In this document: piece by piece, positions 7,719-62,874 of the stretch
Position numbering within the stretch: position 1 is the first letter of the stretch
Layout: every line of letters starts with the position of its first letter
Assembly (NCBI GenBank): GCA_964016885.1
Contig: OZ024750.1
Coordinates: forward strand, 21,142,001-21,206,000
Length of the DNA stretch: 64,000 nt
Direction of reading: 5' to 3'
DNA from: Eledone cirrhosa
Taxonomy: Eukaryota
Made by a program: the position numbers and the translations under genes
The notes under the pieces: model-generated
Database searches by the model: none
Told to the model about the DNA's origin: nothing
What the model saw: only the letters and a program-made list of their open reading frames with translations

Positions 7719-7757
7719 TATATATATAAATATTATTATTACTATATATACATAGGA

Positions 7758-7952
7758 GGGCGGTGGATTGGCCGTATCGGTAGAGGGTCGGACGCCATGC
7801 TTTGCAGCAAAGTGTTACTTCCCTTTACGGACTGAGTTCAAATCCCGCCGAGGTTAACTTTGCCTTTCATCCTTACGGGGTCGATAAAATAACGTACCAG
7901 TAATACACTGGGATAATTGCCGGCCTTGTGCCAAAAAGTAGAAACAATTATT
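7758..7952 (+). mobile_element. SINE family A, full length (reference copy in this window)
   Basis: tggattggccgtatcgg A-box-like, gagttcaaatccc B-box, gcctttcatccttacggggtcgataaaat central domain, AT-rich tail. Confidence 0.9.
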
Positions 7953-9353
7953 ACTATATATAGTAATAATAATAATATATAATTCCGGGTAATATGTATA
8001 TATATATATATATATATGTGTGTAGGGGGTGTGTGCGCATGTGTGTGGGGGGGGTGTATTACCCGAAATACAGGATGTACGGATAGAAACATAACCCAGT
8101 GGAAAGGTAAACTTGCCCAAAATAACCCTTAGGTCATGGCGATACACGGAATCATTCAGGATTTCAAGCACATATATAAACAAAATAATTTCAGACATAT
8201 GCTGATAATATTTGCCCATGTGTATTTGTGTCTATTGTAATATTTCAATTTTTGTACACATTATTATTATGCATACATATTTCGTCTAATTGACAGAATG
8301 ATGAGATAATAGGTTCACTATATTTTGCTATGATATCCCTGTATATCTATAAAGATGTATATGCTGTGTATATATTGCGTGTATTTGCAATGTGTATCAT
8401 GTGGTGTTTGTTTTTTTTTCTTTTTAGTCTGGACGTGAGTATGTTTTGTAAATTCCAAGAACCATTCTGATTTATCTTTCTTTTTGACAATCATAGACAT
8501 CATTAAAATTCATCTCAAGCTAACCTGAATCACTAAAATATCGAAAGAAGCTTTTATCCTGGTTATATAGTTTTATATCCGTATATATATTATTTTTTAA
8601 TCGGTATATTTCATTCTAGAAATATCCCAAATTTTAATTATCTTTAAGTTTATTCTCTTTTTTTAGTATCAAATATCTTCTTTTACTTCTGCATTGTTTT
8701 GCTATCATTTTATTCTGCTTAATTCTTCATTGAATAGCATCTTCCATTATATACATTAGACCTAACATGTTTTGTTTTGCTAGAACATATTGTTAAATCA
8801 TGTTATATTATTCACCAAATGCTAGTTGGTTACGTGTTCGATATTATAACACGAGACATAAGAGCCATTATAAGCATTTAATCATTATAGAAAACATGGG
8901 TTGTTAATCTCTTTTTCTTGGAATTAACAGTATCAACCTTAACCCATGTCCGACCAGAATTCTCTCACCTCTTCCTTTTCAACCTGGCTGTGTCTGCCTC
9001 TCATACTGATTTTAAGGTAAGGTACTCAAAATAAAGTCACACAGATTCGATATTATAAGAGATAAGTATGTAAGGTAAAGCTTTTACGGTGAAAATATAA
9101 AAGTAAACATAAAGGTTGATTGAGAAGGTGGAATTGTCTGATTTACGTTGTTGTTGTTTTTTACGGTGTCTTTCACCTGTTTGTCCCTGTGTTTAGAATT
9201 CATACTCGAATGACATAGGCATAGAGGCTTATTCTTTGAAGTGGTTGTTTCAAATATAAGGTTACCTAACATATCCTAACAACAAATAAGTAAGCAAAGG
9301 TATATATGAATAGATATATACTATATATACTGTATATGGTATATATATCACTA

Positions 9354-9850: not shown

Positions 9851-10015
9851 TGAGTCTCTATCGAGTAACGTTATTCCAAAGCCCGTTGATTTTATACCAA
9901 TAAAATAGTGTTACTACTCTGGAATTAAATTCTATATGTAATAAATATGACTATACTCTACCAACAAATTGAGAAGCTTCTTCAACTGTGGTTACACCAC
10001 AGCACTACTCGGATA

Positions 10016-10042
<27 letters not shown>

Positions 10043-10064
<22 letters not shown>

Positions 10065-10690
10065 TTGTCCCTGAGCTTCTTCTCAATCTCAGACTGGATC
10101 CTGTTAAGAATCATCCTGTTGAGGGTCTTTGCCGCAGGTGACGACAGTGAGATCCCACTGTAGTTGTTGTTGTTAGAGAGCTCTCCCTTCTTTGGCACTG
10201 GGACGATGTTACTGATCATCCACTGATTCGGGGCAACTCCTTTCTCCAGTGCCTGGTTACAGAACCCCAGGATGATTTCATCAAAATCACACCTCTTCAT
10301 CACCTCTGATGCCACTCCATCTTCTCCATGAGCCTTGCCCTCCTTGATCCTCTTCTTGGCTCTCTGAAGCTCCTATCTGGTGAAGGCCTCTATCTCAATG
10401 TCCAGTTCCTTTAACAGCCGCCTGATCTCCCCAGTGATCTGGGCTGTGGAGGGTGACTCTCCTAGTATGGTCCTAAAATGGTCTAGCCATTTCCCCTTCC
10501 TATCTTTGGGCCCCGTTCCTTGGATCTGATTTGAACAACTTCTCTTCCTCCCTGTGATCTCGTTGATCATCCAGCTCTCCTTACATCCAGACCTGTCAAC
10601 CGCTCTTTCCACACTTCTGATCTTCTCTATCAGTGCCTCCTCTCTGGCCTCAGTGTAAGCGGTACAGAGTTCTTCCCTCATTACCTCAAC
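10043..10690 (-). mobile_element. RTE-clade LINE, inverted 5' segment (region upstream of RT plus the first RT motifs, disrupted)
   Basis: KEGKAHGEDGVASEVMK...PNQWMISNIVPVPKKGELSNNNNYSGISLSSPAAKTLNRMILNRI contains the KAxGxDG, PKKG and NYRxISL non-LTR RT motifs. Confidence 0.9.
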
Positions 10691-11130
10691 CGCTTCATTG
10701 CTGTAGTGGAGTCTGTGCTGCTGTACGGATGTGAGACTTAGACAATGACCAAGAAACTCACTCAGATGGTGGATGGGTGCTACACGAGAATGCTGAGGAT
10801 GGCTCTGAACCATTAAGCAGTATACACTGAGGATGAAAAACTCAGAGCTGTATGGGAGCCTCCCAAAGGTCAGCTCAAAAGTGACACCAGAGGATACTGA
10901 GGTTTACTGGACATGCTCACCGACATCCAGAGTTGACATTGCACTCAGTGCTCCTGTGGGATCCCCTACATGGACACACTGGAAGAGGAAGACCAAGGTT
11001 AACGTATGTTAATGCCCTAAGGACAGACACTGGTCTGTTGGAGACGCAGGACATGGCAGCAATAATGAGGGACAGAGACCGCTGGAGAGAACTCGTTCAT
11101 GGATCTCGGGAATTCTACCCGCTCTAGAAA
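10691..11130 (+). mobile_element. RTE-clade LINE, sense 3' segment (C-terminal region, disrupted)
   Basis: FIAVVESVLLYGCET*TMTKKLTQMVDGCYTRMLRMALN and VLLWDPLHGHTGRGRPRLTYVNALRTDTG...MRDRDRWR*. Confidence 0.9.
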
Positions 11131-12129: not shown

Positions 12130-12172
12130 GTATATATGTTTATATATATATACGTATATCTATATATATATA

Positions 12173-12415
12173 TAGAAGTAGTTCCACAACAGTTAGTTCA
12201 CCATACCGAGAACAATTGTTTCACTTTATTCGGATCCTCAGCTTCGACTGAATGAAGTTGTAAGAGGAAGAAAGAACAACTGTACCGAGCTGATGATCCT
12301 AATAAGGTGAAACTATTGTTCTCAGTATGGTGAACTGTTGTGGAACTACTTCTACCAAACTCGTCCCATGGACTGAGTGTTCTACTACTACATATATAAC
12401 CCACCAGTGTTCTAC

Positions 12416-12457: not shown

Positions 12458-12459
<2 letters not shown>

Positions 12460-12657
12460 CGAAGGAAATGTGGTAAGGAACCAGATGGACCATAATGCAC
12501 CAAAGTACTCAATACTTAGGGTAGTAGAGTGGGTAATAGAAACGAGTAGGACCCCGACGGCTGAGCTCAAGCCGTTTCGACGGCTAATTCTGGACTCTGA
12601 GTCCGGAATTAGCCGTCGAAACGGCTTGAGCTCAGCCGTCGGGGTCCTACTCGTTCC

Positions 12658-12661
<4 letters not shown>
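12458..12661 (-). mobile_element. FB-A fold-back element in (TA)n
   Basis: 77-nt tail aacgaaggaaatgtgg...gggt, then a near-perfect palindrome 12535-12661 centred on 12598; contains GAAA-cggct tgagctc agccg-TC (hammerhead 3' half). Confidence 0.9.
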
Positions 12662-12709
<48 letters not shown>

Positions 12710-12765: not shown

Positions 12766-12811
12766 AAAAAAAAACATAATAACAATAATGACAATAATAG
12801 TAATAATAATA

Positions 12812-12988
12812 ATTTCTACTTTTGGCACAAGGTCATCAATTAACCAGTACATTACTGGTACTTTATTTTATCAACCCCATAAGGATGAAAGGCAAAGTTA
12901 ACCTCGACGGGATTTGAACACAGACCGTAACGTGACGTAACTATGTTAGAAATCATGGCATCCAAACCTCAACCGATACTGCCAATTC
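12812..12988 (-). mobile_element. SINE family A
   Basis: Reverse complement of the family A sequence (tttctacttttggcacaagg...ggatgaaaggcaaagttaacctcg...ccgatactgccaa). Confidence 0.85.
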
Positions 12989-15627
12989 AATAATAGTAAA
13001 AGAGAGAGCTTGTAGATCGGACAACACACGCTGTCTTTTTCGGGGTGTAAGTTTTGATTAATTTTTGTATGTTCAAACATCCAAATTCAATAATATTTAT
13101 ACATACATTCCTTCATACATACACAAAGAGTGAGAAAGAGGTGCAGTTACATACACATCACCATGACCTGACATGAATGCCATAGAACTGTTGGAGTTTC
13201 ACAAGTTCACTCACGTACTTCATAATAATTAGTCATGTAAAGGAATCGGCTGAAGGTTATTTTCTAAATCGATTAGTAATTTAAGCACCTACCTTTGTTT
13301 CGTTCTCAAATGCATGGATATGATATCTATATGTTTTCAATATTCTATGTTTGATACGATTGAGAGCATTTAGCATCGTATCTTCTCAAACCAAAGAACT
13401 AGGAAAACCTTTCTAAAACATTAAAATGATTACTGAAGATGATTTAGGCCATATACGTACTGAACTAAATTATGCATTTAACATACACGACACATATTTA
13501 GACCTGCGTAGTTGCCGTGATTAGCCCCATAGTTTAATGCTGCGATCATCCCGCCATGCTTCTTCGTCGGAATTACGCATATTGTTCGTTCCCTATGTTT
13601 CCATCAGTCTTGAACCCCATGCCAACCCTACCTCTCTGTGGACCGAGTTTAACTGAGTGACTAAGACTTTAACGTTGTCATTATTAGCACTGAGTTCCAT
13701 TCTTACTGCTTGGCATCTCGATTAAGTGGCATACACATAATACAGTTATATGTTACGTCAACTGTGTAACTAAAACGAAGTTATGTTGTAGTAAGTCAAT
13801 ACTGTTAGACATGTTTCCAAATTTCAATTCTTAGTAGATCAATAACGAATATCAACTTCAATTATCAAATACAGCATCTCTTCCATTCTTCACAAGTAAG
13901 TAATAATTGATAAATGCTTATGATTCACCATTTCGAATGGCGACGAAGTAATTGAAAGATAATTGTTCCAACCGAGGCAGTATATATTGTCTGGAGTATT
14001 CCTGAAAATTTACTTGAAGCATTAGGCTAAATATATATCTGGAACTGTATCAATAACTAATACCTAAATTACAACTATTAAAAACAGGCATTAATTGATA
14101 CGGCTATTATTTCATGTGTATGCAAATCATCAGATTGATGTTGCCTCATGCTCCCTGCAAATGTGTCATTCCCGAGAAAAACGAAACAGAAGGGCAGAAA
14201 GAGCCAATCTGACTAGCTGGGCTCATCCTTTATCAGTTGTTCAGTGATGAAACGTCGATATCCAATATTACACCTTATCACCTTATTCAAACCCCGCTGT
14301 AAAATATCAAGTACTTATAATAGTATCAGCATAGTACTAGTAACACTATTGTGTACGTGAAGTGTATGACTCCTTGTGAATACAAGTGCTTGAATGTAAT
14401 GTGTTCTCTCGTCACATCTACATGTGCTATTCCAAGTTGTTATTCTAAAACTGAAAGATTACTGTCTTTCTAAAGCTTATGATAATATTCTGAAACAAAG
14501 TTATGAAAACTTCCTTGCGCTATATATAAGTGTATATATCATGTTTATCAAAATGTCTATCAAAAACGATGGCGATAGGACACATTTCTCTGTGCAAATA
14601 TATTGTTCGTATATATAAACAAACGTTTTCTTCTGAGGAAACATTTCGTATAGGCTTTGTTAATTATTCCGTATAATACACAGCAGGTTTCATAATCGCT
14701 ATAAGGCAATATACATATAATGTCTCTAACACGTAGCAGTAACGCCTCTTTATTTTCTGTCGGTCCTTATTATCTCTCTCTGTTTCTCCTTATTATATCC
14801 CTCCTTGCTTTTTATTCATTCCTCTTTCTTCATAATTGTAAATACATTTACATATATTCCAGGCGGTGTAGAGATTCTAACGAACACACTGCTCAAGAGC
14901 TTTCCTAAATACACAATATTGTTTATGTTCATGTGCTTGTGCCAAGGAAGGTTTTATAATTGCGTAGAATTTTCTGCCAAGGGCCACCAAGAGGAATTTA
15001 TCAATGCAAGACTATATATGTTGCCTTGTCTTAGATTTTAACAATTTACATACACACAGAGATACACACACGTACATAGTCACATACAACTTTACAACCA
15101 TCTTACACCAATACAAACGGCGTCGATAGCAACTTTCTCTTTATTTCAGTTCATTCTTTTCCCACATCTCACTTGCTTCTATCCTTTCCATTTTTTGCAC
15201 TCACATTTCTTTCTTCTTTATTTGGCTTCTTTCTATAGTTATTCTCTAGCGAAATTTACATCAGAGCATCTTTCCTTCAGTTATCTTTCTATCACCATTA
15301 ATATTACTCCTGTGTCTCCACCCGCCCCTCCTCATTATTTCTTGCTTAACTTTCCCCAGTTTCTAGTGTTGTAAAGTTTCAAGTCTTTCAAATCTTTCAG
15401 TTATCTCCTACTGGTGTCACGTTTTCTCAAATGTATTTGCCAATGAGTATTCTCACTTTCTCCAACGATAGCCTGTGGATGTAATTCTCTATATATATAT
15501 GAATGTATATATATATATATATAAAGAAGATCCACGTACATGGATGGATATATATAAATATATATATGTATATGTGTGTGTGTACGCTATCGCATACACA
15601 GTTGAATACGGAGAAAGGCAGTTGGGA

Positions 15628-15686: not shown

Positions 15687-15886
15687 ACGAAGGAAATGTA
15701 GTAAGGAACCAGGTGGACCAAAACGCATCAAAGTACTCAATACTTAGGGTAGTAGAGTGGGTAATAGGAACGAGTAGGACCCCGACGGCTGAGCTCAAGC
15801 CGTTTCGACGGCTAATTCTGGACGGCTAATTGGCCAGAATTAGCCGTCGAAACGGCTTGAGCTCAGCCGTCGGGGTCCTACTCGTT

Positions 15887-15891
<5 letters not shown>
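15686..15891 (-). mobile_element. FB-A fold-back element in (TA)n
   Basis: Same tail and arms as 12458 but a different palindrome centre (ctggacggctaattggccag). Confidence 0.9.
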
Positions 15892-19469: not shown

Positions 19470-19806
19470 TGCAAACTGTCTATTCTTTTGAATTGATACA
19501 ATATTTTGTTTGACTTTTCCAGACATCAACATGTTCTGTGACAAATACATTATATGTTTGCGTGATTTTGTCATGAATAAGGTGGGACTTAAAATACTAT
19601 GAGACCTGTAGTTATTCAAATACTATTGTACATAAAAGAAGTACTAAATTATCTCAACATGAATCTTTTATAATCTCTCTCAACAAACTAGTAAACATTA
19701 TATGTATATGTATGTTTGTGTGTGTCTGATGACCCTCTGATAAACAGGTGAAACTCCAATACTACTTAGCCTTAAGAAAAGGCATATATATATACTATAT
19801 ATATAT

Positions 19807-24664: not shown

Positions 24665-24722
<58 letters not shown>

Positions 24723-24723
<1 letters not shown>

Positions 24724-24746
24724 TGTTCAATCCCAGTCTTGGCAGT

Positions 24747-24788
<42 letters not shown>

Positions 24789-24810
24789 ACTGCCAAGACT
24801 GGGATTGAAC
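24723..24810. repeat. Inverted repeat of about 25 bp flanking a (TA)n spacer
   Basis: gttcaatcccagtcttggcagtcaat-(AT)n-attgactgccaagactgggattgaac. Confidence 0.9.
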
Positions 24811-24982
24811 CATCAGCACAGTTGGGGTATGTCAGCCATCAATTTATATTATCTGATGGGGACGTACTGATGGAAAAGCTCAGTACCTCTGAAATATATA
24901 TAATAGAATATATTTGATCACATGAATGTCTATATTTATTAATATTTTGAAGTAATGTTATATATAATATATATATGTATAT

Positions 24983-25128
24983 ATAGGAAAATGATTGACC
25001 CCGTTTCGACGGCTTGAGCTCTGTCGTCGGGGTCAATCATTTTCATATTACCCACTCTACTACCCTAAGTATTCGGTATTCTGGTGCGTTATGGTTCATC
25101 TGGTTCCTTGCCACACTTCCTTCGTCTT
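24983..25128 (+). mobile_element. FB-A element, diverged, short inverted arm
   Basis: ataggaaaatgattgacccc / ggggtcaatcattttcatat plus the family A tail. Confidence 0.85.
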
Positions 25129-25237
25129 ATATATATATATTGTATATATATATATATATTTATATAAATACATGTGTGTGTGTACGTGTGTGTGTGTGTG
25201 TATCTGTGGGCGTATGTATGTGTACCCCTCCCCGTCC

Positions 25238-25410
25238 AATCGGAGTTAACCACAGTAAGTAAGGTACTCAATACATAGCAGAGTATAACTATTTAATATA
25301 GAAATGGATTGCTTCTACAGGACTAGAACTGTTACATTCGAAGGAAATCCTGATGATCTCATTTGAATGAAACATTTATAATCCTGTAGTGGCTATTTCT
25401 ATATTAAATA
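25238..25410 (-). mobile_element. FB-C fold-back element; inverted arm carries CTGATGA...GAAA at 25350-25372
   Basis: tttaatatagaaat...ctacagga / tcctgtag...atttctatattaaa inverted arms; tail at left. Confidence 0.8.
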
Positions 25411-25443
25411 TATATATATACTTAATATTTGAATGTGTGTGTA

Positions 25444-27323: not shown

Positions 27324-27347
27324 TGTGTGTGTGTGTATATATAAGTT

Positions 27348-27470
27348 ATTCCGGGTTGAATCGGAGGTAACCACAGTAAGTAAGGTACTCAATACATACC
27401 ATAGTATAATAGTTTTAATATAGATGAGATTCTACAGGACTAGAACTGTTTCATTCTTTAGAAATCATCG
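27348..27470 (-). mobile_element. FB-C element fused to an FB-A element
   Basis: Minus strand GATGA-tttc taaa gaat-GAAA-cagttctag-TC-ctgtag plus the full tail to ...caacccggaat. Confidence 0.85.
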
Positions 27471-27706
27471 TAATAGGAACACGTATGACCCCGACGGCAG
27501 AGCTCGAGCCGTTTCGACGGCTATTTGTGGATTAAATAAGAATTTTTAGCCTGGTAAATTGTTATTTAGTCCAGAAATAGCCGTCGAAAAGGCTTGAAAT
27601 CTGCTGTCGGGGTCTTACTTGATCCTATTACCCACTCTACTACTTTAAGTATTGAGTACTTTGGTGCGTCATGGTCCATCTGGTTCCTTACCACAATTCC
27701 TTCGTT
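27471..27706 (+). mobile_element. FB-A fold-back element with a longer central spacer
   Basis: Arms taataggaac...cggctatttgtggattaaataa / ttatttagtccagaaatagccg...cctatta plus tail. Confidence 0.85.
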
Positions 27707-28025: not shown

Positions 28026-28229
28026 GATATATAGTATATATATATATGTATATATAGTATATATATAATTATATATATATATAATTAGATATATATATAT
28101 AATTATATATATATATAATTATATATATATATAATTATATATATTATATATATGTATACATATATATATATATATATATAATAAGGAAAAGCGAAGTAGT
28201 TTCAGATGTTCAAGTCCTTTAATAATAAT

Positions 28230-28303
28230 GCTGTGATATATATTTCAGTGACGACACTGGCCACACTGTTCTGTGTGCGAGTGTCGTGTCATCATCAGAC
28301 AGC
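28230..28303 (-). ncRNA. Complete type-I hammerhead ribozyme motif
   Basis: gctgt-CTGATGA-tgacacgacact..cacac agaaca gtgtg..agtgtcgtcact-GAAA-tatata-TC-acagc: 5-bp stem I, long stem II, palindromic stem III, AUC triplet. Confidence 0.85.
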
Positions 28304-28474
28304 TTGTTACATAATAAGGTTATGTTTCCGAGGCAATCCAAATTGGATCGACAAGGGAACGAATGAATTGCGTGTTCTTGGGTTTTTCATCCGCTCCCTT
28401 GTGAGTACCAATTCACCTCCACAGGCCTGCGCTAGCTCAAGCGTATGTCCGAAGGAAGTTGACCATTCGCCACC

Positions 28475-28548
28475 GCAGACTGATGATGACACGACACTCG
28501 CACACAGAACAGTGTGGCCAGTGTCGTCACTGAAATATATATCACAGC
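28475..28548 (+). ncRNA. Second hammerhead copy with an imperfect stem I 5' strand
   Basis: gcaga-CTGATGA...GAAA-tatata-TC-acagc. Confidence 0.65.
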
Positions 28549-29015
28549 ATTATTATTAAAGGACTTGAACATCTGAAACTACTTCGCTTTTCCTTATTCG
28601 ATATTTACTCCGTCACTCCTATGTGGAAAAAGTACGTTGAGTGCTTGAATTGAATTGCATCAATGTTTACCCTAATATATATATATATATATACATGGTG
28701 AAGAAAGACTCTATCATGCTACAGCACACATATAACGTATTTTCTGTATAATAAAGCTATTATTATCTGCAGCAGCGGTTGCAATCCCATCAATGATGGA
28801 CCCACCTTTTCGTGGGACATAAATTCTACCAAAGGAAACAGAATTTCAAATATTTAGAATAATTGCGTGATGCCGTGTATGGGTAAGGATGTATCAGAAA
28901 AGCGATACAACACACGCCAATTGCGATGGGTTTTCTTTTAAATAAACGAAAGGAACAAAAAGATAAATATTTCAAAATAAAAATAAGTATTTCAGAAATA
29001 CAGCAACTAAATTTT

Positions 29016-29079
<64 letters not shown>

Positions 29080-29084
<5 letters not shown>

Positions 29085-29275
29085 AACCAGTAAGACCCCG
29101 ACAGCTGAGCTCAAGCCGTTTCGACGGCTAATTCTGCATAATTCAGAATTAGCCGTCAAAACGGCTTGAGCTCAGCTGTCGGGGTCTTACTGGTTCCTAT
29201 TACCCACTCTACTACCTCAAGTATTGAGTACTTTGGTGCGTTATGGTCCACCTGGTTCCTTACCACATTTCCTTC

Positions 29276-29321
<46 letters not shown>

Positions 29322-29513
29322 AACCAGTAAGACCCCGACAGCTGAGCTCAAGCCGTTTCGACGGCTAATTCTGCATAATTCAGAATTAGCCGTCGAAACG
29401 GCTTGAGCTCAGCTGTCGGGGTCTTACTGGTTCCTATTACCCACTCTACTACCTCAAGTATTGAGTACTTTGGTGCGTTATGGTCCACCTGGTTCCTTAC
29501 CACATTTCCTTCG

Positions 29514-29515
<2 letters not shown>
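29080..29515 (+). mobile_element. Two near-identical tandem FB-A elements (29080-29278, 29317-29515)
   Basis: Same arms, same centre (ctgcataattcag) and same private variants; separated by (TA)n. Confidence 0.92.
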
Positions 29516-33574: not shown

Positions 33575-33780
33575 GAGATATCAATATGAATGGCCCTGTT
33601 ATTTTTAACTAAAGACTGTTTTCCAATTCCAACACCAGTCCTCTAATCTATCTTATCCGAAACGTTAAGACCCTCCTCCTGCTATATCAAGCGTTAACTT
33701 CTTATATCCCATCCATATACTGTACCGATTGTGTTGTTATTTCTGTTTACCTTTTACATATAATATATATATATATATAT

Positions 33781-34201
33781 AGTTAAAAGAATAGAGGTGT
33801 AACACACAAGTTATTATATATTGGTAAACGGAATAGAAAATGCTGACAAATTGTTCACAGTTGAAAAATGGTTTAATTAGGAATAAAAGAGTATTAGTGA
33901 TTGTATGGGTTAGTATTCAGTTGTGGTTTTAAGTTTTTAAGTTTTTACCGGTTGCGCATTTCTAAATGCTTTTCAAAAATAATTTTGAGATAGAGTGTCC
34001 GTGCTGTTTGCTCTGATCAGAGCAAACAACACGGACACTCTATCTCAAAATTATTTTTGAAAAGCATTTAGAAATGCGCAACCGGTAAAAACTTAAAAAC
34101 CACAACTGAATACTAACCCATACAATCACTAATACTCTTTTATTCCTAATTAAACCATTTTTCAACTGTGAACAATTTGTCAGCATTTTCTATTCCGTTT
34201 A

Positions 34202-34208
<7 letters not shown>
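33781..34208 (-). mobile_element. FB-H element: near-perfect 390-bp palindrome plus a 35-nt tail, in (TA)n
   Basis: Centre tgatca at 34014-34019 with no spacer; arms differ by an 8-nt duplication and one substitution; each arm has ttt-TTGAAAA-gcattt aga aatgc-GCAA-ccgg-TA-aaa (34054-34091). Confidence 0.88.
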
Positions 34209-34415: not shown

Positions 34416-34573
34416 GTGTGTGTGTTAAGTATTTAAGTAAAGAAAGGTAAAAGATAGAAGAGTGCTCTATGTATAGAACGGAGCTATTCAATTCCATAAT
34501 AAACAAGGCAATATAATTAGTCCAATAATTATATTGTGTTGTTTATTATGTTTATTATTATTATATATATATA

Positions 34574-36687: not shown

Positions 36688-36872
36688 TGGATTGGCAGTA
36701 TCGGTAGAGGGTCGGACGCCATGCTTTCCAGCATAGTTACGTACCTTAACTATCTGAGTTCAAATCCCGCTGAGGTTGACTTTTCCTTTCATCCTTACGG
36801 GGTCGATAAAATAAAGTACCAGTAATGCACTGGGTAATTGCTGGCCTTGTGCCAAAAAGTAGAAACAATTAT
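36688..36872 (+). mobile_element. SINE family A
   Basis: Matches 7758-7952. Confidence 0.88.
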
Positions 36873-37518
36873 TTATTTGTGAAGGGGAACACGATCCTGC
36901 CACTTTTTCAGATACACCACATCAGTTAGATGATAGGAAAGAAACTATCCTGAATCGGAATGGTTATGAAAGAGACGTCTCCGCCGTAAAGTGTCCCACT
37001 TTACATTACATCCCCAAGATGCTCGATGTAAAAAAGTATCAGTTGATTACTGGAATATATCTAACTCAACTATTTTCTTTGCACACGTGAAATCATGGGT
37101 TAGATCTAACAGAGCATGTGTTTTAACAAATGCGTTAAGACGGTACCTAAGTCATATATTCAGCTGCACGACACATTGTGTCACGTTGATTCGGCTAGTG
37201 GATTGCATTAAATTTACACATGTCTGTAGAGGATCTAACCTCATACAAAGCAATAAATTGATCTAACCTCATACAAACAATAAATTGATCGAATAAATAT
37301 TTGTCCATCTCCGAAACCGACGGAGGATCCATTATTCCTCTAATATTAAATCAATTGACCTCAGTAAGAGGAAATGTAAAATCTACTGTAAATCCTGTTG
37401 TATACTAACGTTTCATGTGATTGAACTTTGATTCTCATTCTAAGAAAGCTTACGTCAATCAATCTCATTCTTACACATGCGTAATCAAACCTAATATATT
37501 ATTTCTCTTATTTTTCAG

Positions 37519-53373: not shown

Positions 53374-53465
53374 GTGAGGATTTTGATATTACACGATGAA
53401 GAACAACACCGTGTATGTACTGTCAGATGTATTATTCTTCAATAAATGAAAACTGCTTAACGTAT

Positions 53466-53920
53466 TTGTTTCTTCTTTTGGCACAAGGCCAGCAATTATC
53501 CCAGTGTACTACTGGTACTTTATTGTATCGACCCGTAATGAGGAAAGTGAAAGTTATCCTCGACGGGATTTGAACTCACACCGTAAAGGGACGTAACTAT
53601 GCTAGAAAGCATGGCGTCCAACCGTCTACCGAAACTGCCAATTCACCGCCCTAACTACTTAATATAATTGTTTCTACATTTATAATTGTTTCTACTTTTG
53701 GCACAAGGCCTGCAATTATCCCAGTACATTACTGGTACTTTATTTTAGCGACTCCGTAAGGATGAAAGGCAAAGTTATCCTCGACGGGATTTGAATTCAG
53801 ACCGTAAAGGGACGTAACTATGCTAGAAAGCATGGCGTCCAACCGTCTACCGATACTGCCAAATCGCTGCCATAACTGCTTAACATAATTGTTTCTACTT
53901 TTGGCACAAGGCCAGCAATT
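53466..53920 (-). mobile_element. Tandem array of SINE family A (two full copies plus a 3' stub)
   Basis: Units at 53466-53651, 53685-53871 and 53887-53920 with a shared spacer ctaactacttaatataattg / ataactgcttaacataattg. Confidence 0.88.
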
Positions 53921-58163: not shown

Positions 58164-58217
<54 letters not shown>

Positions 58218-58218
<1 letters not shown>

Positions 58219-58453
58219 TAAGTATATTTTGAAACAGTGAGCGAGTTTGAAATTAGAAAATATATAGCTTTCACCGTATTTTTAACTAAAGGAATGTTTG
58301 CTTGATAACAGGGTTTAGAACCCTCAGATAAATGGAAAAAGATGAGTATTGACGTACATGTACGTCAATACTCATCTTTTTCCATTTATCTGAGGGTTCT
58401 AAACCCCGTTATCAAGCTAAAATTCCTTTAGTTAAAAATACGGTGAAAGCTAT

Positions 58454-58465
<12 letters not shown>
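58218..58465 (-). mobile_element. FB-T fold-back element in (TA)n
   Basis: Palindrome 58252-58465 centred on gtacatgtac, plus a 34-nt tail; homologous to 59988-60523. Confidence 0.88.
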
Positions 58466-58490
<25 letters not shown>

Positions 58491-59987: not shown

Positions 59988-60523
59988 ATTATTAGAAATG
60001 TAAGCTATCGCCGTATTTTGACTAAAGAAATTAAAGAAATTTTTTAGCCTGATAGTGGAGTTAAGAACCCTCGGAGAAATGGAAAAACATGAGTATTGGC
60101 GTACATGTTTGGTTATCCGGACCACTGTGCTACTATTTACACCAACACATCACCCGTCTTTTTCCATTCAAATTAGAAGCTATAAACTTGTCGACTGTAA
60201 TGTCAAGTAAGGATATTTTCGAAACAGCGAGTTGGTTTGAAAATATCCTTACTTGACATTACAGTCGCTAAGTTTATAGCTGCTAATTTGAATGGAAAAA
60301 GACGGGTGATGTGTTGGTGTAAAAGGTAGCACAGTGGTCCGGATAACCAAAGATATGGGTTCGACTCCCATGTACGTCAATACTCATCTTTTTCCATTTC
60401 TCCGAGGGTTCTTAACTCCACTATCAGGCTAAATAATTTCTTTAATTTCTTTAGTCAAAATACGGCGATAGCTTACATTTCTAATAATTTCAAACCAACT
60501 CGCTGTTTCGAAAATATCCTTAC
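59988..60523 (+). mobile_element. FB-T fold-back element, longer copy containing a tRNA-like domain
   Basis: Arms about 59988-60222 and 60238-60487; the terminal sequence ...gaaaatatccttac recurs at the centre; TA tracts on both sides. Confidence 0.88.
60308..60379 (+). tRNA. 72-nt tRNA-like cloverleaf (pseudo-tRNA / Pol III promoter), possibly tRNA-Arg-derived
   Basis: Acceptor gatgtgt/gtacgtc+a, D arm gtgt/gcac, tggt/acca arm, T arm atggg-TTCGACT-cccat; TTTTT at 60389-60393; anticodon loop non-canonical. Confidence 0.65.
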
Positions 60524-60596
60524 ATATATATATATATATAGAGAGAGAGAGACACATGTGTGCGTGTGTGCATGTCAGTATGTGTAAATATATATG

Positions 60597-60627
<31 letters not shown>

Positions 60628-61523
60628 GTATGTATGGCGTAGGTAAGTTTCCTGGGCAAAAATGTAATCGTATGAAGTGTAGGATCTTTTGAATGTGGCA
60701 GTTGTTTAGTTGTTTAATGTCAAATACATCACATACATACACACAGACAAACACATATATGATTACATTTACGCTTAATAATAAGTTTCCAAGAATGGAT
60801 ACTCAATAACATGCTAGTGATTGATTTATTAAGTTCGAGTTAATGTCCTGTAATTCTGGAGTCTCAATTATCAATACGGATACATCATACAGTCAAAACC
60901 TTATAAACCTATGAACATAGCCAAACATCCAAAGTAACAAGACACAGTTGTGAAGTTTATAAAACTATACATAGAGATCGTTTTATCTCTTTCTGTCTGC
61001 GTATATATAAACAATAAATAGAAATAGAAGATATAGATTTATAACTATATATTTCTATGATATAATTTGGGGTTATCCTTTTAATGTAACGAATATTTTA
61101 CTACTTTTATTAATATATATATATTGTTTGTGCAATGAAGAAACAGATATCGACATAATATTTTTCAATCTATGTATGCAGGGTTTGCAAAAAGATAATG
61201 ACATTCGGAATGAACGTGAGACATCATGACACACTTTGTCTGTGTTTAGGAAATTAAACAAAGGAATAACGAAGTAAAATAACGGATGGCTAATATCAAA
61301 CTGTCAATATTTGTATATTCTCACGCCTGGCTTGTAATTTGATAAGAACACAAACAAACAAATTATATATTGATGTGTTGATATGAATATATTGATAACG
61401 ATATAGGCAATGATATAAACATTAGAATTGGGACAATGATTGTAATGTATTGCAAGACAGAAATACATTGTAATAATAACCAAATGATTGTAGTAAGATA
61501 ATCTATAATGTTAATAATAATAA

Positions 61524-61713
61524 TAATTGCTTCTACTTTTGGTACAAGGCCAGCAATTACTCCAGTACATTACTGGTACTTTATTTTATCGACCCCGTAA
61601 GGATGAAAGGCAAAGTTAACCTCGACGGGGTTTGAACTCAGACCATAAAGGGACGTAACTATGCTACAAAGCATGGTGTCCAACCCTCTACTGATACTGC
61701 CAATCCATCGTCC
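61524..61713 (-). mobile_element. SINE family A
   Basis: Reverse complement of the family A sequence. Confidence 0.88.
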
Positions 61714-62701
61714 TTATAATATTAATAATAATGATTATGATAATATTATACCAGGATTTTAAGTGGAAGTTAGAAAAGATTTGAGACTGTCATTAGATCA
61801 AGTTCTTCCCGATCGTCATAGGAGCACGAGGTACTATCTGAAAGAATTTTCAAGGATGGTTAAAGAATATTAGTCCAGACCCGTTTTTTGTAACATTTCA
61901 AAAGCATGCTTGCGGGGAACATCAAGAACCCTCCGATACGTCCTGAATATCTCAGGCTTCAGGTAGCGGCTTGATATTCATTTGAAAAAACTTTCCAGTT
62001 AAATAACATAAATAACTGAGACTCAAAGAATAATAATAATCATTTTAATAGTAGCAATCATTGTAATAATAGTAATAATCGTATCAAGATGTTCTTGCAT
62101 TGGCAAAGGTCCTATAAATCCTAATGGTAATGACGAATATTTAGGCATAATTTCACCACTAGTTCAAAAATGGGAACGAAAAAATCAATCATTCAGCCAA
62201 AGGAATATCATCGCATAATATCCTCCGGCTGCTATTTTAAACTTCCTTAACACCTTTGATACCAACTCAGTTAAAGTTTGCCCTGATTCTGTGGGATAAA
62301 GTCCAAACGTTAATCTTCTCCTATTTAAATTAGATTACCATGACATAATTCCATATAATACTATATGTTAAATGACAAACTTAGTGATGAAGTAATTATA
62401 ATTGTGGTACATCACTTAAACTTCTTCCTTAATTGAAATAATGTGTCGTTTCGTTTACATATATATATATATATATATATATGGAATCTGGTCCCTTACT
62501 ATTTGAACACATATCTGTGTTTATCTCTCTTTATTATACTGAATTATATTACACGGCCCTGAAGAATTTTTTTCATTGAGCTGTTTAATTGTAAGAGACT
62601 ATTTTGAGTTTCTAACACAATATATACTTTATATATATACTTTATATATATATATATATATATGTATATGTATCCCCTGACAATATGCATATATATCCCC
62701 T

Positions 62702-62748
<47 letters not shown>

Positions 62749-62750
<2 letters not shown>

Positions 62751-62835
62751 CGAAGGAAATGTGGTAAGGAACCAGGTGGACCATAACGCACCAAAGTACT
62801 CAATACTTAGGGTAGTAGAGTAGGTCCTACTCGTT

Positions 62836-62840
<5 letters not shown>
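62749..62840 (-). mobile_element. FB-A element, minimal version (tail plus an 18-nt inverted arm)
   Basis: aacgaaggaaatgtgg...gggtagtagagta joined to ggtcctactcgttcctat; both family-fixed ends are retained. Confidence 0.9.

Positions 62841-62874
<34 letters not shown>

Follow-up and report, generated by a model that had tools for sequence, protein, structure and literature searches.

FB-A copies in the window

The window, i.e. the whole 64-kb stretch analysed here, is animal DNA with abundant (TA)n runs, and at 12534-12662 it carries a palindrome with 64-bp arms and its centre at 12598 (palindrome length about 125 bases). The RNA fold of this palindrome reached −121.9 kcal/mol (z = −23), and none of 200 shuffles folded equally well. 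Read outwards from the centre, both arms contain C-GAAA-C, a stem III with a palindromic loop (GAGCTC), GUC and GGGGUC; the motif given for each arm in the initial annotation, GAAA-CGGCT-tgagctc-AGCCG-TC-ggggtc, was recovered exactly in both, with GAAA at 12618 (plus strand) and 12578 (minus strand). Stem III was read as GAAA-C with a 4-bp continuation around the GAGCTC loop. The full unit of this family, FB-A, is ~200 bp long, lies in (TA)n surroundings and has a one-sided tail of ~75 nt, which in the 12598 copy (copy 1) reaches ~75 nt to the left of the span annotated initially. The parts of copy 1 are as follows:

12459..12533, minus strand: tail, the 3′ end of FB-A; it has no mirror partner and leads into (TA)n, where reads and contigs also finish
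12534..12597, minus strand: tailed arm; 18 nt of presumptive stem II/loop II, then the half-core (GAAA 12578-12575, stem III, GUC 12558-12556, stem I 3′ strand 12555-12550, then a variable segment), with TATTA at the arm end
12597..12599: fold-back junction; 3 nt unlike the upstream element sequence, which is known from loose ends at 12596
12599..12662, plus strand: inverted arm without tail; GAAA 12618-12621, GUC 12638-12640, TATTA end in (TA)n

Each arm of this copy halts 18 nt upstream of GAAA. The ~9 nt past the stem I 3′ strand (12541-12549 and equivalents) are hypervariable, with at least five forms among subfamilies and conserved flanks.

A profile search detected seven FB-A copies in the window, which represent six independent junctions, since two of the copies are tandem twins with a common centre. 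The remaining copies are:

Copy 2, 15687..15890, minus strand: centre 15827.5; arms as in copy 1 with another centre, ending 15 and 17 nt upstream of GAAA and separated by a 10-nt filler duplicating adjacent sequence
Copy 3 (25009 copy), 24982..25128, plus strand: fold at GAAA; inverted arm with an 18-nt deletion
Copy 4 (27550 copy), 27470..27706, plus strand: centre 27550.5; older, the arms differing at 8 of 56 sites; reach upstream of GAAA 41 nt in the inverted arm and about 30 nt in the tailed one
Copy 5, 29081..29278, plus strand: centre 29140; arms reaching 14 and 14 nt upstream of GAAA; 7-nt filler
Copy 6, 29318..29515, plus strand: centre 29377; tandem twin of copy 5 (29320-29514 against 29083-29277; 195 nt, 99.5% alike), its junction counted with that of copy 5
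Copy 7, 62750..62842, minus strand: tail and a 17-20-nt inverted arm; fold downstream of the cleavage site; ribozyme core gone

The four centres given in the initial annotation (12598, about 15828, about 29140 and about 27550) agreed with those computed here (12598, 15827.5, 29140 and 27550.5), while three copies, at 29320-29514, 25009-25125 and 62750-62842, had been left out. Motif damage was noted in two FB-A arms, namely AAAA for GAAA at 29158 and, in the 27550 copy, a disrupted stem III on the tailed side. Weak Rfam microRNA matches, all below threshold, fall on FB-A copies at 12565, 27504, 29084 and 29318-29433.

All seven copies contain an inverted 5′-truncated copy placed head to head, and all seven have the tail at one end only; (TA)n flanks both sides of six, and the seventh adjoins a stub of a sister family. 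MITEs and foldback DNA transposons have inverted repeats at both termini, whereas one FB-A arm lies internally, 75 nt away from the element end. The FB-A palindromes likely originated as stub insertions in which a Penelope-like retrotransposon (PLE) left its 3′ end (pseudo-LTR and tail). This identity is based on layout, since no RT/GIY-YIG ORF is linked to any FB-A copy and none was recognized by eye among the 60 window ORFs of at least 100 aa. The layout itself (inverted truncated copy, one-sided tail, (TA)n) is already published for PLEs, and the family may already figure in Repbase, Dfam or the O. vulgaris repeat library.

PLE insertions often include an inverted 5′-truncated copy and a one-sided tail and prefer (TA)n (PMC8557442). 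In the endonuclease-bearing (EN+) PLEs (Arkhipova et al. 2013, PMC3846280; Craig et al. 2021, PMC8557442), the head-to-head inverted truncated copy, the one-sided tail, the junction palindrome, the (TA)n targets and partial tandems all correspond to FB-A. Unlike these elements as described there, the whole FB-A insertion measures ~200 bp and has no ORF sequence, its ~75-nt tail exceeds the described 30-40 nt, and its fold points are clustered inside the predicted ribozyme. Non-LTR retrozymes (PMC7229834; bioRxiv 10.64898/2026.07.22.740005) are likewise small, non-coding, hammerhead-related, PLE-derived animal repeats; however, they are organized in tandem, head to tail, every unit having a whole hammerhead, whereas FB-A consists of head-to-head stubs with half a core.

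Probable half-hammerhead arms and longer copies

The FB-A arms contain the GAAA, stem III and NUH cleavage triplet of a type I hammerhead. A strict half-ribozyme pattern (C-GAAAC, at least 5 bp, GUC) matched the window seven times, always in FB-A, whereas 500 shuffled windows averaged 0.04 matches each; a looser version requiring GAAA, 5 bp and UH was uninformative (30 real matches versus 15.8 per shuffle). This result supports, as the most likely reading, the earlier assignment of each arm to stem III, a GUC triplet and the stem I 3′ strand. Judged by its sequence, the FB-A arm most likely derives from a type I hammerhead situated in a Penelope-like pseudo-LTR and corresponds to the 3′ half of that ribozyme.

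As had been annotated, CUGANGA is missing where it should stand: with up to one mismatch allowed, it was absent within 100 nt upstream in all 10 arms examined, and none of the seven copies has it in a fitting position. A CUGANGA-containing pattern suggested at that time for finding an intact copy had no matches within the 64-kb window, and no hammerhead appeared among the 150 listed of 210 Rfam matches in the window. The stem II 5′ strand is missing from every window copy, and stem II should be regarded as presumptive. A hammerhead core cannot form from a CUGANGA-less stub alone. The segment contains the hexamer AGCCGU twice, once in each of stems II and III; it can pair across GAAA, which may then be locked in a tetraloop; the hairpin closing over GAAA is predicted at −8.0 kcal/mol and stem III at −7.7 kcal/mol.

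A sister family has a tail motif in common with FB-A (p = 0.003, 2000 shuffles; both copies examined), the same test on four other families giving p = 0.04-0.57. This sister family carries a CUGAUGA...GAAAC core, and in one arm CUGAUGA stands 12 nt ahead of GAAA. The type I hammerheads of PLEs, as described by Cervera and De la Pena (2014, PMC4209133), have C11.1-GAAA-C, a palindromic loop 3, GUC and a pseudo-LTR position, all as in FB-A. The same paper also describes paired opposite-strand hammerheads and solitary motifs from truncated copies. FB-A differs from what is described there in that the 3′ half occurs alone, stem III has 6 bp, i.e. more than the minimal metazoan form, and the predicted stem II region spans about 53 nt.

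It is very improbable that FB-A never had any CUGANGA and that, as in the Naiad elements without hammerheads, its arm is natively half a core or arose by chance from short repeats. CUGANGA is indeed unseen in FB-A, the hairpin over GAAA matches stem III in stability, and Naiads target (TA)n without canonical hammerheads and in some cases with partial cores (PMC8557442). At the same time, the strict half pattern is rare by chance, the palindromic loop 3 is a trait known from PLE hammerheads (PMC4209133), and the sister family has a full core in the matching place. Moreover, 12 short FB-A motifs gave no matches to the Naiad/Chlamys/Hydra supplement (PMC8557442) in an exact one-strand comparison, in which line breaks can hide matches.

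Four of 14 listed public sequencing runs (X1, X4, X5 and X12) were compared with the 202-base stretch 12,460-12,661. Matches were obtained for 16,311 X1 contigs, 438 X4 contigs, 23,675 X12 RAD reads and 9 contigs of X5, which is a second organism. Loose ends behind 12596 were carried by 104 X1 contigs (agreement 0.49), six X4 contigs and one X5 contig, and they continue like the centre of the 27550 copy; this resemblance indicates that the 27550 centre is genuine upstream element sequence and that longer copies exist. The X5 contig agrees exactly over 47 letters and is followed by 98 letters matching nothing in the stretch, so it is apparently not folded back. The last six of its 30 visible letters, AAATAG, are complementary to the stem II 3′ strand; by a hand estimate, the chance of a six-letter match in 30 A/T-rich letters is about 2-3%. 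If the match is real, stem II would consist of an 11-bp base and an insert of ~31 nt, and CUGANGA would be expected about 54 nt upstream of GAAA. In the longer copies, neither CUGANGA nor a 5′ strand of stem I was visible within the 30 readable letters, the predicted box lying beyond them. An intact master element, from which the initial annotation had derived the dead copies, is likely in view of the longer copies and the six complementary letters in one contig, but it is weakly supported, CUGANGA itself being unseen.

The centre of the 15828 copy might be taken for a complete stem II; however, the upstream sequence found in other copies is different, and a re-copy of adjacent sequence is therefore the better reading. 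Exact-pattern scans gave no matches in viral contigs and prokaryote genomes, and metagenome contigs contained neither the pattern nor the predicted intact core; these collections are not expected to contain DNA of this animal.

Other fold-backs in the window

Six further tailed fold-backs in (TA)n were found in the window; two have an exact CUGANGA...GAAA in both arms, one has it in one arm, and three have no exact core:

12170-12392: exact core in both arms; whole minimal hammerheads; ~37-nt tail; 70 bp from FB-A copy 1
28178-28680: inverted pair, 118 bp 100% alike; whole core in each; ~78-nt one-sided tail; 181-bp spacer
25229-25412: exact CUGANGA...GAAA in one arm
33780-34206: 190-bp arms; perfect TGATCA centre; ~39-nt tail; no exact core; possibly Naiad-like
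58215-58466: no exact core; fold on a perfect short palindrome; ~37-nt tail
59988-60525: no exact core; ~37-nt tail; nested with 58215-58466 as one fold-back family

Each of the three fold-backs without an exact core contains one-mismatch core look-alikes. The 28178-28680 family has a structured long stem II with 45 nt between the boxes, comparable to the one predicted for FB-A, and in the element at 28181-28597, both arms traverse a stem II of −19.5 kcal/mol. Thus, the fold-backs without an exact core and the arms crossing intact hammerheads indicate that folding back needs no ribozyme and that a strong stem II forces no stop. The inverted repeats at 34490-34555 and 24720-24812 (within the latter, 24727-24808 has 20-bp arms in inverted order around a (TA)n run) were set aside because they lack the tail layout.

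The fold-back at 59988-60525 contains a tRNA-like segment (Rfam tRNA, 60308-60379, 43.8 bits), which suggests a tRNA-derived element mobilised by PLE machinery. Solitary minimal hammerhead-like cores lie beside microsatellites at 19726 (plus strand) and 31776 (minus strand). Additionally, a SINE-like family of ~190 bp is present in at least 10 copies, including 12795-12989, 7757-7953, 36688-36873, 53463-53902 and 61512-61714; it may resemble octopus SINEs. Two adjoining frames at 9992-10903 (minus strand) look by eye like a decayed LINE reverse transcriptase.

Fold points and proposed formation of the stubs

Four of the six FB-A junctions lie 14-41 nt upstream of GAAA, three of them at 14-18 nt, and two lie at GAAA or past the cleavage site. 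The earlier placement of all centres in stem II consequently holds for those four, but not for the 25009 copy (at GAAA) or the 62750 copy (downstream of the cleavage site). In three of the four stem II junctions, both arms stop at or near one base (18/18, 15/17 and 14/14). Outside the target junction, 0-1 differences separate the paired arms of young copies, which also have subfamily variants in common; between subfamilies, 3-6 differences were counted in 56 sites. Since the arms of the 12598 and 15828 copies are nearly identical and their centres differ, and divergence within copies is this low, the mirror arm is probably made anew at each insertion; a later central deletion might also account for the differing centres.

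In run X1, centres 1-6 letters shorter than that of the 12598 copy were found in eight rows, with up to 131 contigs and a summed depth of about 30,000, while joints elsewhere numbered at least 13, those listed having a depth of 22-76 each (37 further rows lie outside the listing). This suggests a hot spot for folding 14-18 nt upstream of GAAA, bearing in mind that centres similar to the query are the easiest to detect and that contig depth is not copy number. The depth of X12 RAD reads was 2242 at 12595 versus 364 at 12597, so the reads past the enzyme site mostly get beyond the predicted helix. Peaks of X12 read ends at 12589 and 12607 were considered as a stem II stop and rejected, since they coincide with the borders of two AATT sites and are likely the RAD enzyme cut; the remaining reads mostly lack AATT (1285 of 1673, and 950 of 1190 at 12587). 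The fall of contig depth towards the centre was likewise rejected as a measure of truncation, because it mirrors the ramp at the left end of the stretch (0.7, 1.5, 2.1 and 2.6 million versus 0.7, 1.6, 2.4 and 3.0 million).

On balance, FB-A is probably a PLE insertion reduced to a stub through short cDNAs and a general fold-back habit, not through the ribozyme hairpin. A short cDNA would be primed in a (TA)n target and would start from the tail end. The full arms run through the GUC site, which suggests as template an RNA that was uncleaved or had been re-ligated; this RNA would come from a longer element whose stem II is long. Most cDNAs would finish before CUGANGA (~54 nt upstream of GAAA), commonly 14-18 nt upstream and just beyond the predicted helix. 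Closure could then proceed by self-priming or end joining, with 2-6-nt palindromes or re-copied fillers, or a second short cDNA could be joined head to head; the second arm would finish at a TATTA site, leaving a tail-less mirror arm. Because CUGANGA would lie further upstream than most cDNAs extend, the 5′ box of the core would be lost, and its loss is reasonably explained as a by-product of short cDNAs. Neither the clustering of the fold points nor the frequent stop of both arms at one base is explained by plain random truncation.

Parts of this route correspond to published observations. Palindromes at PLE head-to-head junctions have been interpreted as self-priming (PMC3846280). The purified PLE protein of Anolis (Poseidon, PAc; Frangieh et al. 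2024, PMC11167929) is described as cutting and extending both target strands with a preference for ATT, and as using uncleaved RNA as template with two internal start sites that bound the tail. Both-strand extension, the paired start sites and the uncleaved template are similar to what is proposed for FB-A, and the ATT preference resembles the ending of the FB-A inverted arm at TATTA, beside an AC-rich stretch; a difference is that in FB-A ~75 nt would separate the two start sites. The literature search found nothing on fold points clustering inside a PLE hammerhead, most subscription papers being outside its scope.

The cause offered in the initial annotation was reverse transcription stalling or switching template at the ribozyme hairpin. 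In its developed form, a long stem II structure (or a bound protein) would halt the reverse transcriptase in a fixed zone and trigger the template switch, so that the ribozyme sets the stub length; we consider this rather unlikely. The four window junctions within the zone and the clustering of X1 centres among the joints listed agree with such a halt, and so does a weak distal hairpin noticed by eye in the run letters, its 3′ strand starting about 14 nt upstream of GAAA. The duplication of adjacent sequence at the 15828 junction would be expected of pausing, and the fold of the 25009 copy lies at a cDNA-strand hairpin (6 bp, TTCG loop, −7.0 kcal/mol) in which the stem II 3′ strand takes part. 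However, the arms are already beyond stem III (−7.7 kcal/mol) and end 3-30 nt beyond the predicted 11-bp helix, at the base of which a blocked enzyme should stop, while the 28181-28597 element crosses its strong stem II in both arms and three window fold-backs have no exact core. A snap-back of stem II should also leave the whole loop in one arm, an arrangement seen in none of the window junctions, and two of the six junctions are located elsewhere. It is similarly doubtful that the parent had a long-stemmed switchable hammerhead with stem II as a built-in stop, and that most of a very large family would consist of ribozyme-dead stubs; if this were true, the junctions would form a genome-wide record of Penelope reverse transcriptase stops and cDNA-end joining.

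Run-off from the 5′ end of the RNA, another way of ending both arms at one base, is improbable. The three junctions with matching arm ends would fit it, as would the promoter-like motifs in pseudo-LTRs (PMC3846280), but in the 27550 copy the two arms end at different points (41 and about 30 nt), and longer copies exist. It is quite improbable that the mobile unit is itself a palindromic non-autonomous (or MITE-like) element whose centres vary by later deletions. A few X1 centre variants of high depth (10,740 and 14,773) could be amplified masters, and copies 5 and 6 were duplicated together with their centre; against this, the fillers at the centres are missing from the upstream sequence, the one-sided tail means that the ends are not terminal inverted repeats, and the X5 contig extends 98 letters upstream without a mirror arm. 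Ordinary truncation with folding back is thus favoured over a block set by the ribozyme hairpin. The initial interpretation is partly supported overall, being right on the origin of the arms, unproven on the intact parent and weak on the cause.

The more than 16,000 contigs of one run on a 202-base stretch provide many junctions for testing how PLE head-to-head inversion arises (self-priming versus joining of two cDNAs), and the family could show whether the ribozyme influences cDNA length. Note that genomes with FB-A-like stubs would contain many perfect 60-bp hairpins, which annotation tools may classify as MITEs or as precursors of microRNAs.

At 27347-27469, a sister-family stub cut within its own hammerhead core is fused to copy 4 in head-to-tail order. 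The resulting composite (27347-27706) is bounded on both outer sides by a tail and (TA)n and is likely the product of a template jump between RNAs of two families having a common tail motif.
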